From the IMG/VR virus record IMGVR_UViG_2974673286_000001, positions 64,001 through 128,000 of that record: a stretch of 64,000 nucleotides of DNA, one strand, 5' to 3'. Position numbers and translations under genes: made by a program. This document shows, piece after piece, positions 60,498-64,000 of the stretch. Each line of letters starts with the position of its first letter. Within the stretch, counting starts at the first letter, position 1. The DNA is from a virus. Taxonomy: Duplodnaviria > Caudoviricetes. The notes under the pieces are model-generated. The model made no database searches. It saw only the letters and a list, made by a program, of their open reading frames with translations, and had not been told where the DNA came from.

Positions 60498-60526
60498 ACA
60501 TAGGATTCCGCATATGCCCATAAAGT
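60498..60526 (+). promoter_or_regulatory. sigmaE-like sporulation promoter candidate
   Basis: ACATAgg-14bp-CATAaagT; no TTGACA-type promoter visible here. Confidence 0.4.
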
Positions 60527-60581
60527 AGAATCACAAGGGTATTACAAAGTATGCGAAGGAATGACAAAGGAGGAGTTAAGT

Positions 60582-61661
60582 ATGACAAAGTATGCGGGTT
60601 TTAATGTAAAAGCGTTGGACGATGGGTACGGGGATGTAAAATTCGACAGCACAGGTTCTCCTAATCTTATCCCATCATTCGTCACAAGTTTTAAGGAGAA
60701 GCCTAAAAAGGACTTTGGGCAAGACAGTAAGCTGCGGTATGTAGCCAGTGAGATTGATGGAGAAAGATATGTAGTAGGAGACTACGCAATGAAGCTGGAC
60801 CCCAACATCATCTGGGCTGGAGGGGAAAACAAACACGCTGACAAGAGGTTCCCGGTCTTATTAAAAACTACCCTTGGGCTAATGAGCTCGGGAAGACATG
60901 AAGTAATCGACACACTTATGATGAACCTTCCTATCAGATACGACACAGAGGAGAGACGGCAGCAGCTTACAGAAGTGGCTCAGGGAACCCACACCGTAGC
61001 TTTAAGCAGCGATGGAGTAAACTTCATTAAAAGAATGGTCACAGTAAATAACGTGGAGATTAAGAAGCAGCCGTTCGGTAGCCTGTGTGATGTGATACTA
61101 GATGGTAACGGGGACATCATTGATAAGGACACAGCCAAAGGGTTCAACGTCATTGTAGATGTAGGTGCCCGGACACTAAACATCCTCACTGTAGACGCCT
61201 TAGAGGAACAGACAGAGCTTTCACTACAAACGAACGATGGGATGTACACCGCATTCAGTCAGGTAGGCTCCTATCTAGAGAAGGAGCTTGACGTGATCAT
61301 CCCGGACGGTAAGCTGCCGCAGATCATTAGTCAAAAGGAAATCAAGAACATGGATATCACACCGCTTATTAATAGCACATACGAGAATCATGCCAACACA
61401 ATACTAGCTGTACTAGACAAGGTGCTAGTCAACTCATGGGGTTTTGTTACTTCTGTTATCTTCACAGGCGGAGGAGCCGGGAAAGAGCTGCTGAGACCGT
61501 ATATTGAAAAGCGCTTCAACAGAGTACCTTCTATCTTCTTGGACCGTTATTCGAATGTCAGAGGTCTCCGCAAGTATGGAATCCGACAATCGAAAAAGAA
61601 CCCTAAGAAGGTAAATAACATCAAGATTCAGGTGGGCAATCATGAGTACAGTCCGAAGTAA
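60582..61661 (+). CDS. ParM/StbA/Alp-like actin ATPase
   Basis: ALDDGYGDVK phosphate 1, QPFG, VDVGARTLN phosphate 2, FTGGGA, SNVRGL. Confidence 0.9.
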   Translation: MTKYAGFNVKALDDGYGDVKFDSTGSPNLIPSFVTSFKEKPKKDFGQDSKLRYVASEIDGERYVVGDYAMKLDPNIIWAGGENKHADKRFPVLLKTTLGLMSSGRHEVIDTLMMNLPIRYDTEERRQQLTEVAQGTHTVALSSDGVNFIKRMVTVNNVEIKKQPFGSLCDVILDGNGDIIDKDTAKGFNVIVDVGARTLNILTVDALEEQTELSLQTNDGMYTAFSQVGSYLEKELDVIIPDGKLPQIISQKEIKNMDITPLINSTYENHANTILAVLDKVLVNSWGFVTSVIFTGGGAGKELLRPYIEKRFNRVPSIFLDRYSNVRGLRKYGIRQSKKNPKKVNNIKIQVGNHEYSPK

Positions 61662-61950
61662 GAAAAACAACAGACGAACACTTTACCTTAGTGATAGGAA
61701 GGATAAGGACATTCTGGAGTATATTGAGCCGCTTATGGATGAACGCTATGACTTTTCCTTTGTGATCCGGGAGCTGGTTAGAGATGGGATTAAATACAGA
61801 ACCTGCCCGACCGCAGCTCCCGTACCACCTACCCAAGTTGTACCACAGGAAAGTGGCATACAAAGTAATCCTCCTGAGCTGTCCAATATCGTTTTGAAGA
61901 AGAAAGAGTTGTCCGATGCAGACATCGAGGATAGGCTAGATAGCTTCTAA
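61642..61950 (+). CDS. Putative ParR-like (ribbon-helix-helix) adaptor
   Basis: RTLYLS...DKDILEYI...FSFVIRELVRDGI N-terminus, disordered C-terminus, overlaps the actin gene. Confidence 0.7.
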   Translation: MSTVRSKKNNRRTLYLSDRKDKDILEYIEPLMDERYDFSFVIRELVRDGIKYRTCPTAAPVPPTQVVPQESGIQSNPPELSNIVLKKKELSDADIEDRLDSF

Positions 61951-62078
61951 TTTCCCGCTTCTTTCCCAAAAGCCTTATTTCCGGCGGGAAACGGGAAAAA
62001 TACAGTAAAAAGCCCGAAAATAGTGTGTTTTTAGAGTGTGGGAATTAAGGAAATAAGGGAAGAAAGAGGTGAGAAAAG

Positions 62079-62651
62079 GTGGTCAAATACACGATCACTT
62101 CACGGTTTCACGATAAAGAGGAATTTAGGGATCACGTACACCAAGGAGTCGATCTGGCGATGCCTGAAGGAACTGATCTGAAAGCCATAGTCGATGGAGT
62201 AATCAGAACAGCAGACTACGGTAGTTCTTCCACAGGAAAAACGGTGTTCATAGACGCAGCCGATGGAAAGACGTACATCTATGGACACCTGAAGGATTTC
62301 TCTGTAAGCGATGGGCAGCCGATACATGTGGGTGATATTTTAGGTCATTCAGGTAACTCTGGTCATGTTGTAGGTAGCAATGGCGGGTATCATCTCCACT
62401 TCGGTATAAAGGAGCACGGAGAATTTATAGACCCGACACCGTACACTTCACTCATTCAGCATATGGATCAGTTAAAAGGGGCAGCTCACGCAACCGTTAA
62501 CTCTGGCTTGGATGCTCTGGAAATGCTAAACCAAGCGCTGAGCCAGTTTACTCAGACGTTATCGGAGATGACTCTGAACTGCATCAGTCTATTACTCGAA
62601 AATCGTACAGTGTCTCTAATATCCGATATAGTTCTCTCATGGTTATGTTGA
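62079..62651 (+). CDS. M23 family metallopeptidase
   Basis: ITSRF, HQGVD, YGHL, G.SGNSG, HLHFG. Confidence 0.9.
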   Translation: MVKYTITSRFHDKEEFRDHVHQGVDLAMPEGTDLKAIVDGVIRTADYGSSSTGKTVFIDAADGKTYIYGHLKDFSVSDGQPIHVGDILGHSGNSGHVVGSNGGYHLHFGIKEHGEFIDPTPYTSLIQHMDQLKGAAHATVNSGLDALEMLNQALSQFTQTLSEMTLNCISLLLENRTVSLISDIVLSWLC

Positions 62652-62745
62652 CATTCTGCTTATCCTGAATTGTGTGAAGAACCAGATGATCGACATTCTG
62701 CATTTGCTTCTCATATCTGGTCAGCGGTTTAGAGTCAAAGAGCAC
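62584..62745 (-). CDS. 53-aa antisense protein (not in ORF track)
   Basis: Minus-strand SD AAGGAGGT 7 nt before GTG; MLFDSKPLTRYEKQMQNVDHLVLHTIQDKQNVNITMRELYRILETLYDFRVID. Confidence 0.65.
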   Translation of the reverse strand: MLFDSKPLTRYEKQMQNVDHLVLHTIQDKQNVNITMRELYRILETLYDFRVID

Positions 62746-62768
62746 GGTCGCTACCTCCTTTCAAGAGT

Positions 62769-62797
62769 TAGTATGTCCGGTCGAATTTCAATTATAC
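62769..62797 (-). promoter_or_regulatory. sigmaG-type forespore promoter
   Basis: Minus strand reads GTATA-17bp-CATACTA, matching the B. subtilis sigmaG consensus, 8 nt upstream of the SD of the 53-aa ORF. Confidence 0.65.
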
Positions 62798-62811
62798 AGG
62801 GGGAATTAAAA

Positions 62812-63012
62812 ATGACGAGTATCTTTTTGGCAGTAGGCGGAGTTGCAGTTGTTTGTTCGGCAGGGACTGGATTAGCAGCAGCTTTGAAGTGGTTCCATAA
62901 CTACGAGCCAGACGTGGATAAAAAGAAAAAGACCGTTAGAGAAACACGTAACCCGAACAGAAGCCGACTAGACGATTTGAGTAAAAAAGTACGTACAGAT
63001 AATCATCTATAA
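62812..63012 (+). CDS. Small single-pass membrane protein
   Basis: MTSIFLAVGGVAVVCSAGTGLAAALKW; start after aggggg. Confidence 0.6.
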   Translation: MTSIFLAVGGVAVVCSAGTGLAAALKWFHNYEPDVDKKKKTVRETRNPNRSRLDDLSKKVRTDNHL

Positions 63013-63025
63013 GGAGGTAACTGAA

Positions 63026-63577
63026 ATGATTATTACAATGTCATCCAGAGAGCTCAATTCAGCCGTCAGTTACAAGAGTCCGGTACAGCAGTTTAACCTT
63101 AAGGAGAAAGTTGAGGACAATGTGCTTTTTATTGCGGACACCCTGCAAAAGGAGGTGATCAAGGGAACGACCGGACAGCAAAGAAAAAAGATCAAGCAGC
63201 TGAAGAAATTGCTGAAAGGATTCGTTGTGGTTATGGGGGCGGGAATACAAGCAACACCCAAAGCCTTTGCCGCAGCACCTCTAACCGGAGCAACCACGAC
63301 AGTAGCAGCCAATCAGATAACACCAGCTCTGGTAATGAAATGGGGTCTGAATTTAGCTTTAATCTCTGTATCGGTGGGCGTAGCATTGTCGATGACTCTT
63401 CTGACGCTAGCCGGGATTTACAGGATGATGAGGAAGCGGAAGGAAGCGGAGGAGTGGAGCGTAGATGTAATCAAGGGTCTCGTGCAGGTTTTAGTTGCGG
63501 TCCCGGTCGTATATCTGCTCTTTTATCTGGCGCAAACGGTATTCAAAAGCTTGCCGATTTTAAGCGGACTCTTTTAA
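63026..63577 (+). CDS. Membrane protein with TrbC/VirB2 pilin-like C-terminal half
   Basis: PKAFAA processing-like site, then TM-AGIYRMMRKRKEAEEWSVDVIKGL-TM. Confidence 0.5.
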   Translation: MIITMSSRELNSAVSYKSPVQQFNLKEKVEDNVLFIADTLQKEVIKGTTGQQRKKIKQLKKLLKGFVVVMGAGIQATPKAFAAAPLTGATTTVAANQITPALVMKWGLNLALISVSVGVALSMTLLTLAGIYRMMRKRKEAEEWSVDVIKGLVQVLVAVPVVYLLFYLAQTVFKSLPILSGLF

Positions 63578-63630
63578 AAGCAGCTACACTGGCACCCGTA
63601 GCGGTTCTCTCTTCCGCTGTTGTCTCTTCC

Positions 63631-64000
63631 ATGTCGGCAAAAGCCTACGCACAAGCTACAGATGTAAAAGCACCCATCGACCTTCTTTTGCTGGGACGTA
63701 ACAAAGATCAAAATATCCTGACTGCTATACCTGATGCGGTACAGACGTTTAATACAGCTGTAGCTAAAGTAAATGAGTTCCTTTCAGACCTCCCACACAA
63801 TATCGCTGAAATGTCCGTCCATTTAATGAGCTGGCTGTATGAACTATGTGCTACACTGATCCTTAAGACTCCCTTGTGGCTTTTTAATAACGAGTGGTTT
63901 GAGAATACCACTTATCTGTTTAGTTTGCTGGCTATCGGTATCGTTTCCGTTCTGACCGTCATTGAATCGGTAAAGCTCATGCTCAGCAGAGGAAAGAAAA
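63631..64000 (+). CDS. TrbL/VirB6-like polytopic membrane protein, truncated by window
   Basis: Open frame to the window end: MSAKAYAQ...LILKTPLWLFNNEWF...LFSLLAIGIVSVLTVIESVKLM; may start further upstream. Confidence 0.45.
   Translation, partial: MSAKAYAQATDVKAPIDLLLLGRNKDQNILTAIPDAVQTFNTAVAKVNEFLSDLPHNIAEMSVHLMSWLYELCATLILKTPLWLFNNEWFENTTYLFSLLAIGIVSVLTVIESVKLMLSRGKK

Follow-up and report, generated by a model that had tools for sequence, protein, structure and literature searches.

Why would a virulent Bacillus phage keep in a single operon an actin-like partition gene, a cell wall hydrolase and membrane proteins resembling those of T4SS (type IV secretion systems), and what could such a set do with DNA? 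This question is raised by the last part of a 64,000-nucleotide stretch of DNA (the window), which corresponds to bases 64001-128000 of the 153,268-bp phage record IMGVR_UViG_2974673286_000001, estimated to be 97% complete. The window end cuts an operon of about 6.6 kb which, followed across that end, closes with a 744-residue ATPase (gp8). This protein reads as a VirB4-like docking domain joined to an FtsK-type motor for double-stranded DNA (dsDNA) and to a probable winged helix, which is a new result. Based on gp8 and its partners it is tentatively proposed, with a confidence that stays just short of even, that the operon encodes a relaxase-less, single-motor, T4SS-derived apparatus for dsDNA translocation coupled to actin-driven positioning of DNA.

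An operon that closes with a DNA motor

The region is 94-96% identical to that of Grass, SBSphiJ1-7, phiNIT1, SPG24 and the BSP phages, Bacillus phages which all belong to Nitunavirus (Bastillevirinae, Herelleviridae). Features beyond the window end are given in the coordinates of a second segment of the same phage record (L003, G000:C1:124000-140000), in which the window coordinate equals the L003 coordinate plus 59999. Two terminator-like hairpins bracket the operon, the first of them at a spot where the Grass annotation also places a terminator 5' of the module, and between them lie eight genes on the plus strand (gp1 to gp8) and a ninth on the minus strand (Table 1). Each of gp1 to gp8 is assigned to a PHROG family, five of the eight families being of unknown function. 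Gene identities, folds, operon structure and conservation are what the analysis shows.

The original prediction, made from the letters of the window, had described a strong terminator followed by a joint module of partition, wall-hydrolase and T4SS-like membrane genes, and had advised looking downstream for FtsK/SpoIIIE and relaxase genes. The terminator is there and the module proved to be one terminator-bracketed unit, which ends past the window in an FtsK/SpoIIIE-type motor gene, that of gp8. The individual calls of a ParM-like actin, an M23 peptidase, a small transmembrane protein, a pilin-like protein and a VirB6-like protein were also borne out, on the matches given in Table 1 and in the sections on each gene.

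The motor protein gp8

Residues ~314-640 of gp8 constitute an FtsK alpha/beta motor, matched in a single stretch by PF01580 (E 2.1e-47, 161.9 bits vs a cut-off of 24), and across 29 homologues there is little or no variation in the columns of Walker A, Walker B and TQRP. Among PDB entries the matches were to FtsK (2.1e-54, beginning at residue 314-323), to EssC/EccC (5.5e-30 to 2.4e-18) and to TcpA (1.6e-17), while the NCBIfam models scored 195.7 bits for FtsK, 108.6 for EssC and 57.7 for TraB, all of them under the equivalog cut-offs. A motor of a type VII secretion system is not indicated by these scores, since EssC reached 108.6 bits vs a cut-off of 778 and EccCa 102.4 vs 509, with the one PF01580 stretch. 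EssC and EccC contain two or three ATPase domains, unlike gp8, and nothing resembling a WXG100 or effector gene can be seen in the operon.

The N-terminal part of gp8 departs from FtsK. No hydrophobic stretch that could provide an N-terminal membrane anchor was seen by eye, and the N-domain models as a soluble alpha/beta fold. The model of residues 1-330, built from 29 sequences, has a pLDDT of 80.5 and includes a well-folded alpha/beta domain at residues 8-255. When this model was searched with Foldseek, ranks 1-4, 6 and 7 were taken by R388 TrwK/VirB4 (E 0.034-0.097), and alignment with VIA gave Z 12.8-11.6 for VirB4, with a root-mean-square deviation of 3.1-3.5 Å over 200-204 aligned residues that extend from residue 10 to 257 of the gp8 model and from residue 37 to 397 of VirB4. 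The next match by VIA was a chain of the ESX-3 type VII complex (Z 9.2), and unrelated folds did not exceed 7.2. In a search independent of Foldseek, VirB4 was also first, at rank 1 of 48,161 chains (Z 12.0), and only two chains reached Z 8. The likeness is one of fold: by sequence, the best score of the N-domain in a language-model search (Atlas) was 0.81, which is chance level, no Pfam family matched below E 0.05, and tblastn against plasmids found no match at E up to 0.01.

At the other end of gp8, the tails of homologues give sub-threshold matches to MarR (4.8e-5, Aquibacillus) and FtsK_gamma (0.19, plasmid pBMB26), and the best PDB match of the gp8 tail itself has an E of 0.4. Judged from these profile matches, the C-terminus is probably a DNA-reading winged helix, placed where FtsK has its gamma domain. 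A polar loading motif for gp8 was sought among two 8-mers and rejected: the Bacillus subtilis SpoIIIE 8-mer (SRS) occurs 10 times on the plus and 3 times on the minus strand, vs means of 6.9 and 2.2 for 8-mers of the same composition, and is no outlier; KOPS (10 vs 2) is likewise plus-biased and is not a composition outlier.

The search for further components of a transfer system covered the 153-kb genome. None of the three relaxase families searched, PF03432, PF02486 and PF01076, was matched, and neither a second FtsK-family ATPase nor one of VirB4 type was found in the phage genome. A single motor and the lack of a relaxase match fit a relaxase-independent mode of dsDNA transfer like that of Streptomyces TraB, as this is presented in a review (PMC12857230). 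VirB4 is described there as the signature subunit of all T4SS (PMC12857230). The system is related to T4SS and conjugation, yet it fails to show two of their canonical features, a relaxase and a VirB4 recognizable by sequence.

In print, only the labels 'ParM' and 'SpoIIIE homolog' were found for genes of this operon, and the hybrid motor was not found described. Two comparative papers treat the product of the motor gene as a 'sporulation-related SpoIIIE homolog', with sequence similarity as the only ground (PMC4528723); one comparative paper reports the SpoIIIE-homolog gene in 21 phages of the Bastille-like group, and a genome paper of 2025 repeats the label. The literature search, whose coverage excluded most subscription journals, returned no paper in which conjugation, VirB2, VirB4 or VirB6 is connected with these phages.

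The membrane proteins gp4 to gp7

The second T4SS-like component is gp6. Its AF2 model, built from 50 sequences (pLDDT 76.6), retrieved R388 TrwI/VirB6 chains as all of the five top Foldseek matches (E 0.036-0.17), and VIA aligned it with R388 TrwI at Z 11.3, 10.3 and 10.1 over 219-237 residues (235/261), the next family reaching 7.4. PF19597 (TrbL_4) is matched by 3 of the 50 members of the gp6 family (best 9e-7), and the Atlas search with gp6 gave TrbL clusters at 0.93. Since helical folds can reach such Z scores by chance, the VirB6/TrbL call rests on the agreement of these independent lines. One cluster of the same Atlas search (rank 26, score 0.90) unites the Pfam families T4SS_pilin and TrbL_3.

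The gp6 gene is unannotated in Grass. Its frame is open upstream of the ATG (63490-63633) and encodes there a signal-like segment with basic residues, a hydrophobic run and AYA-Q, which is kept in the gp6 homologues of Aquibacillus and Virgibacillus. In the phage there is no ATG, GTG or TTG at 63340-63631, and the signal-like stretch overlaps the end of the gp5 gene in another frame; gp6 may have a non-canonical start, or gp5 and gp6 may be coupled.

By eye, the gp5 protein starts with a long leader, which is followed by what resembles a cleavage site of AFA type, and has a pair of hydrophobic helices with a basic loop between them. It aligns by BLASTP with a Niallia plasmid protein (1e-10) and with the equivalent of pBMB26 (1e-16), and the Niallia protein, annotated as 'TrbC/VirB2 family', passes PF04956 TrbC with 31 bits vs a cut-off of 27.9. 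It is on this homology that the pilin-like call rests.

Two smaller proteins complete the membrane part. The counterpart of gp4 in Aquibacillus is also a DUF7394 protein (5e-12), the positional equivalents on plasmids match gp4 weakly (E 0.004-0.03), and no BLASTP alignment was obtained between gp4 and the 66-aa protein of pBMB26. As for gp7, both the small protein and the overlap of its gene with that of gp8 are conserved in Aquibacillus and Virgibacillus, and on position and size alone it is a candidate for a VirB3-like partner.

The actin-like partition half

The actin-like protein gp1 passes the cut-offs of Pfam ALP_N (2.7e-20) and MreB-like_C (4.6e-18), belongs to phrog_691 'partition protein' (6.8e-101) and matches Ta0583 (1.5e-8) and the ParM of pCBH (1.8e-5) in the PDB. 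The NCBIfam ParM equivalog scored 78.7 bits vs a cut-off of 417, and gp1 is therefore a member of the Alp family, not an R1-ParM equivalog. Its start at 60582, which is also the one annotated in Grass, is preceded by a ribosome-binding site (RBS), AAAGGAGGAG; another possible ATG is at 60561.

The gene that follows, gp2, had been called a ribbon-helix-helix adaptor. A small gene in adaptor position after the actin gene is indeed there, and gp2 is 43% identical to the 103-aa protein that follows the actin gene in Aquibacillus; the fold is not supported, gp2 having no match in Pfam, NCBIfam or the PDB. In a citing paper, a table labels the Bp8p-C adaptor as 'HTH domain-containing' (PMC8026635), that is, as having a helix-turn-helix (HTH) domain.

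Repeats accompany both genes. The three direct repeats over the RBS and start of gp1 are a candidate centromere or operator to which the adaptor may bind, as judged from their arrangement, and BigBertha has a similar pair, AATGRCAAAG, 21 nt apart. The cluster after gp2 is a second candidate binding site, and an analogous AATTCC/TTTTCC cluster occupies the equivalent position in BigBertha. Short two-copy repeats are often chance matches. In BSTP3, BSP10, BSP9, BSP21, SPG24 and phiNIT1 the adaptor gene is separated from the M23 gene (gap at 61951-62078) by an HNH homing endonuclease gene on the opposite strand, an insert that the phage of the window does not have.

An experimental observation on a relative concerns the actin. 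Papers citing the work on phages Bp8p-C/T state that the effect of their ParM-like actin on unstable lysogeny was experimentally confirmed (PMC6669507; PMC8026635 Table 1). By synteny with Bp8p-T, the Bp8p-C/T actin gene is the positional orthologue of gp1, and the effect bears on the plasmid-like carrier state that the original prediction had offered as an alternative. The annotated actin-like gene of Bp8p-T, gp027 (L015 1879-2625), encodes 248 aa vs the 359 aa of gp1. Yuan et al. reportedly described clear and turbid plaque variants, to which the shorter actin of Bp8p-T may relate.

The M23 gene, the antisense gene and the promoter-like sites

The translation of gp3 displays HxxxD and HxH, which we take to be the M23 motif, and no N-terminal signal sequence is evident by eye. 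The gene is present in Eldridge, Bp8p-T and Aquibacillus and absent from BigBertha; within the operon it supplies the wall hydrolase expected of T4SS (the VirB1-like role), though not universally.

Over the end of the M23 gene runs the conserved minus-strand gene. Its product is 45% identical to BigBertha gp216 (BLASTP 5e-17), Aquibacillus has by eye a look-alike 51-aa minus-strand open reading frame (ORF) at the matching place, and no alignment was found with the small minus-strand ORF of pBMB26. A strong RBS, AAGGAGGT, precedes the gene on the minus strand. The -35 box of the promoter-like site that faces it (Table 1) overlaps the gp4 start codon. The antisense gene may gate the expression of gp4 to gp8, either through convergent transcription or because its product is a small regulator.

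The original prediction had remarked on the lack of a sigmaA promoter before the module and had put forward two sporulation promoters in its place, a sigmaE-like site at 60498-60526 and a sigmaG consensus site at 62769-62797. The first remark is correct: no sigmaA-type promoter lies on the plus strand in the stretch from the terminator to the actin gene, and many other intergenic regions of the phage genome show by eye TTGAC..TATAxT-type boxes. The sites themselves fared less well. The sigmaE-like one is weak, fitting a loose pattern only, which was written post hoc and gives nine sites in the genome vs 3.75 in shuffles, while the strict pattern gives none. In BigBertha and Eldridge, inspection by eye of the DNA upstream of the orthologous genes did not find the site. 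The sigmaG site departs from the consensus patterns of sigmaG and sigmaF, and its ATTATA, when reverse-complemented, gives the TATAAT on the antisense strand, so that the -10 box of the antisense gene's sigmaA-type promoter is the better reading. A transcript initiated at it would be without an RBS. Scanned with these consensus patterns, no sigmaG/sigmaF promoter was found in or near the module.

A promoter motif specific to the phage was also looked for and rejected. Enrichment of k-mers gave only early sigmaA promoters and runs of T or A, the candidates GGTATTA and GTATTAC were not recurrent in intergenic regions, and 35 intergenic regions inspected by eye share no motif other than sigmaA. 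The early sigmaA promoters at both genome ends (G000:C1 1300-5500 and 143000-145700) are near-identical and consist of GGTGTTGACTT, a spacer with AATACCCTGATATACT, and CATACCAA, followed by an RBS.

Table 1. Coordinates of the genes and sequence elements of the operon (window positions, unless L003 is indicated)
Feature	Position	Strand	Basis or remark
5' intrinsic terminator, module boundary, closes upstream operon	60456..60492, hairpin 60456-60482 (L003 457-483)	+	11-bp stem, 5-nt loop, T-run
'sigmaE-like' site, CATA-type -10-like element	60498..60526	+	Loose pattern ATA-N16-18-CATA[AC]AnT only
Three direct repeats (~GTATKACAAAG)	60539..60596	+	~21-nt phasing, over RBS and start of gp1; repeat families D2, D6
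gp1, actin-like (ParM/Alp-type) segregation ATPase, 359 aa	60582..61661	+	Pfam, PHROG and PDB matches
gp2, putative adaptor (ParR-like by position), 102 aa	61642..61950	+	phrog_3536 1.4e-33
TTTCC(C)/GGGAAA repeat cluster and inverted repeat after gp2	61951..62010		Inverted repeats I5, I9, I18; direct repeat D5
gp3, M23 metallopeptidase (peptidoglycan endopeptidase family), 190 aa	62079..62651	+	PF01551 1.7e-23, phrog_7767 9e-83
Antisense gene, possibly a regulator, 53 aa	62584..62745	-	Conserved; over last 68 nt of M23 gene
sigmaA-type promoter-like site TCGTCA-16-TATAAT facing antisense gene	62791..62818	-	Top scan score, 10/12 matches; scan overall at chance level (14 found vs 12.9 expected)
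gp4, single-pass membrane protein (DUF7394), 66 aa	62812..63012	+	PF24126 3.2e-33; phrog_3796
gp5, VirB2/TrbC-like membrane protein, 183 aa	63026..63577	+	Homology via Niallia plasmid protein
gp6, VirB6/TrbL-like polytopic membrane protein, 356 aa	63631..past window end, to G000:C1:128701 (L003 4702)	+	Model, Foldseek, VIA, Pfam
gp7, small membrane protein, 39 aa	L003 4714-4833	+	Gene overlaps gp8 start
gp8, hybrid ATPase, 744 aa	L003 4820-7054	+	FtsK motor and VirB4-like N-domain
3' terminator	L003 7076-7098, ~3.1 kb past window end		Hairpin

Distribution and expression

The gp6 family was detected in 157 phage records, of which 155 are named Bacillus phages; 155 of the matches cover at least 80% of the protein. 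The order of actin, adaptor, M23 (where present), small membrane protein, VirB2-like protein, VirB6-like protein, small membrane protein and motor is kept in four genera, namely Nitunavirus, Bequatrovirus (BigBertha, without M23), Eldridgevirus and Agatevirus (Bp8p-T).

A core composed of a small protein, the VirB2-like and VirB6-like proteins, a further small protein and the motor, without actin or M23, is present on 12 plasmids of 121-364 kb. Ten of these are from Bacillus (mostly from the B. cereus group), one is from Niallia and one is labelled Arthrobacter citreus; none was identified as pXO16, the plasmid of the tip locus. On the plasmid of 'Arthrobacter citreus' NEB 577 (CP053689.1) an alpha/beta-type small acid-soluble spore protein (SASP) gene lies two genes downstream of the core, and the host is probably a mislabelled spore-forming member of the Bacillota.

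The whole set recurs on a 224-kb contig of Aquibacillus saliphilus, with the actin, the 103-aa adaptor, M23 and the antisense ORF, as well as an HTH regulator, a DUF7394 protein, the VirB2-like and VirB6-like proteins, a 40-aa protein and a 744-aa motor, and genes for a tyrosine recombinase and a helicase follow the motor gene. Virgibacillus has a similar locus. A scan of bacterial genome contigs left two confirmed loci out of 146 pattern matches. As only 2 of the 246 species genomes of the Aquibacillus family have the VirB6-like gene, the module appears to be carried sporadically by mobile elements. The identifiable bacterial hosts, Bacillus, Niallia, Virgibacillus, Aquibacillus, Solibacillus and Ureibacillus, are all spore-formers of the Bacillaceae or probable ones. 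Homologues were also encountered on large contigs, that of gp5 (95% identical) on a 4.2-Mb contig of Bacillus subtilis and those of gp6 on a 4.1-Mb contig of Solibacillus and a 320-kb contig of Ureibacillus; the phage or the module may sit in bacterial replicons there, by integration, as a carrier state or through misassembly.

Contigs from RNA libraries of two studies, with at least 88% likeness, cover L003 from ~456/541 to 7051/7356 and run across the boundaries between genes, which is compatible with transcription of the operon and is not proof of it. In the three RNA runs of one study there was no contig outside L003 541-7051, where missing cover is uninformative; X1 covers the flanks partly.

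What the operon may do

Based on the evidence described, the favoured reading, a relaxase-less T4SS-derived pump coupled to an actin, can be outlined as follows. The partition half (actin, adaptor and repeat arrays) would move copies of the element's DNA to cell poles or septa. The T4SS-derived half would consist of M23 in some relatives, the DUF7394 protein, the VirB2-like protein, the VirB6-like protein as channel or scaffold, the 39-aa protein and the soluble 744-aa ATPase. The VirB4-like domain would serve to dock the motor on gp7, gp6 and gp5, the motor's winged helix would recognise the element's own DNA, and dsDNA would be pumped, without a relaxase, through the membrane complex and over a membrane barrier at the pole or septum; in those relatives that have M23, this enzyme would open the wall. 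What is inferred here is how the parts assemble, which substrate they handle, in which direction it is pumped and which barrier it crosses; the barrier could be the forespore septum, the septum between sister cells or a recipient cell.

Several observations weigh against this reading. It is not obvious why a virulent phage should have to export DNA, and the announcement of the Grass genome listed FtsK/SpoIIIE and ParM as interesting features of unknown role (PMC3853049). By sequence gp8 is not a VirB4: PF03135 gave no match, PF12846 reached 12.4 bits vs a cut-off of 27.5 and TIGR00929 an E of 0.0011. Its last ~90 residues match winged helices below threshold (TrmB 0.009, HTH_34 0.18). For gp6, the VirB6 match lies under a Z of ~13, up to which helical bundles can come by chance, and the Foldseek E values lie at 0.036-0.17. 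The link of gp5 to VirB2 is transitive, as it runs through one plasmid protein and PF04956 is matched neither by gp5 (E up to 0.1) nor by any of its 51 homologues. M23 cannot be essential to the core, since BigBertha does without it. All 12 core plasmids are typed 'non-mobilizable', a typing that rests on known relaxases. Finally, RNA libraries can hold DNA, and the contigs recovered from them show neither strand, ends nor level.

A more far-reaching version, possible but doubtful, is that the phages use a minimal conjugation machine to push their dsDNA genome, without a virion, into the forespore or into the neighbouring cell of a chain, the actin delivering the DNA to the pump, and that on the 'non-mobilizable' Bacillus megaplasmids the core represents an unrecognised relaxase-free transfer or spore-inheritance system.

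The version centred on sporulation, in which the actin would push DNA to the pole and the pump would take it across the asymmetric septum or the engulfing membranes into the forespore, ensuring 'virospores', seems to us unlikely. The restriction to spore-formers or probable spore-formers speaks for it and may simply mirror the phylogeny of phages and plasmids; the SASP gene near the core of the 'Arthrobacter' plasmid points in the same direction. According to Schwartz et al. 2022, the sigF/G-like sigma factors of the relatives Goe3 and Eldridge lower spore yield (PMC9429907). The operon also has none of the sigmaA-type boxes found in front of many other operons and has a CATA-type -10-like element, a sigmaE-like site that is loose and not conserved, while the sigmaG site is better explained by the sigmaA promoter of the antisense gene and the SpoIIIE 8-mer is neither commoner nor more skewed than 8-mers of the same composition. 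Delivery to the forespore is a live hypothesis with only circumstantial points in its favour.

An equally unlikely alternative is that the operon serves maintenance only: the actin would partition copies of a plasmid-like carrier state, and the tethered FtsK-like motor would clear or resolve DNA at closing septa as FtsK/SftA do with Xer, no DNA leaving the cell. It would accommodate the reported effect of the orthologous Bp8p-C/T actin on unstable lysogeny, the presence of the core on large plasmids typed non-mobilizable and the closeness of the motor to true FtsK. A tyrosine recombinase gene follows the motor gene in Aquibacillus, whereas no recombinase adjoins the module in the phage. Maintenance leaves unexplained both the VirB4-like docking domain that stands in place of the FtsK membrane anchor and the constant company of the VirB2-like and VirB6-like proteins, often with a wall hydrolase. 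No septum-clearing translocase is known to require partners of this kind, which counts against maintenance.

Work on another substrate (protein secretion, envelope remodelling, superinfection exclusion, or the uptake or degradation of foreign or host DNA) is improbable: some T4SS do secrete proteins or import DNA, according to a review (PMC12857230), FtsK-family ATPases drive type VII secretion, and EssC/EccC and the ESX-3 chain are the second-best matches of the motor and of the N-domain (Z 9.2 and 8.7), yet the motor is far nearer to FtsK than to EssC/EccC (NCBIfam 195.7 vs 108.6 bits; PDB 2e-54 vs 5.5e-30), has a single ATPase domain and probably ends in a DNA-binding winged helix, no WXG100-like or effector-like gene accompanies it in the operon, and the linkage to a partition system is kept in Aquibacillus as well as in each of the four genera of phages that were compared.

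The pump coupled to an actin, as proposed here, would have consequences beyond this phage. The system sits in phages classed as strictly virulent, for example those of the SBSphiJ and Goe3 groups of defence-system work. If phage DNA crosses a septum, this would explain the entry into spores or the spread along cell chains of large virulent phages, and if the reading is true it would offer a route of transfer or inheritance for the B. cereus-group megaplasmids typed non-mobilizable. As B. subtilis and its phages are genetically tractable, the question is directly testable.

Comparison with known systems

T4SS are defined by the VirB4 ATPase, to which DNA transfer adds a relaxase and, as a further protein, a coupling protein; in the phage a VirB4-like domain and an FtsK motor are parts of one protein. 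Among the conjugation systems, the minimised conjugative T4SS of Gram-positive bacteria, for example Tcp of pCW3 and Con of ICEBs1, share with this operon a wall hydrolase, a VirB6-like polytopic protein and a DNA ATPase of the FtsK superfamily. They differ in that the phage operon has one ATPase, not two, with a VirB4-like N-domain on the FtsK motor, that no relaxase was found and that its carriers are virulent myophages. The TcpA of pCW3 is reported to be FtsK-like and was suggested to move dsDNA (PMC12857230).

With respect to Streptomyces TraB, the NCBIfam TraB model reaches 57.7 bits on gp8 vs a cut-off of 800, gp8 is soluble and has a VirB4-like domain, and VirB2-like and VirB6-like partners are present here, whereas TraB systems are not described as needing them. 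TraB carries a C-terminal winged helix. The likeness is that TraB is a single FtsK-like hexameric motor which transfers dsDNA without a relaxase (PMC12857230).

The tra operon of pELF-type linear plasmids from Enterococcus faecium (TraC, TraD, TraG) is similar in having an FtsK/VirD4-type ATPase without transmembrane segments, thought to be anchored by a partner, and an essential polytopic 'VirB6 analog'; it has no nickase, and the transfer of dsDNA is proposed for it (PMC13492992). Conversely, pELF has two ATPases, its TraG is rhomboid-like, and its VirB4 and VirB6 labels are given by analogy, as its authors state (PMC13492992). The likeness to VirB6 and to the VirB4 N-domain described here is based on fold matches, unlike the pELF analogy.

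The archaeal Ced system differs from this operon by its CedB, which is VirB4/HerA-like (the NCBIfam CedB model has an E of 0.06 on gp8), by importing DNA and by having no actin partner. Ced components are reported to be homologous to VirB2 and VirB6. In composition the two systems are similar, given that CedA, CedA1, CedA2 and CedB comprise one polytopic and two small membrane proteins and one ATPase (PMC11868833).

The partition half resembles type II partition systems such as ParMRC and Alp7AR, with an actin-like ATPase gene followed by that of a small putative adaptor and with repeats nearby; unlike these, the partition unit is joined here in one operon with a T4SS-like module. SpoIIIE, FtsK and SftA share with gp8 the alpha/beta motor and probably the winged-helix-like tail at the gamma position; unlike them, gp8 has no N-terminal membrane anchor and its residues 10-257 fold like the N-domain of VirB4. 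The arrangement would stand, in compact form, midway from the pumps that move DNA at septa to the machines of conjugation, and it bears on the relation of the two.

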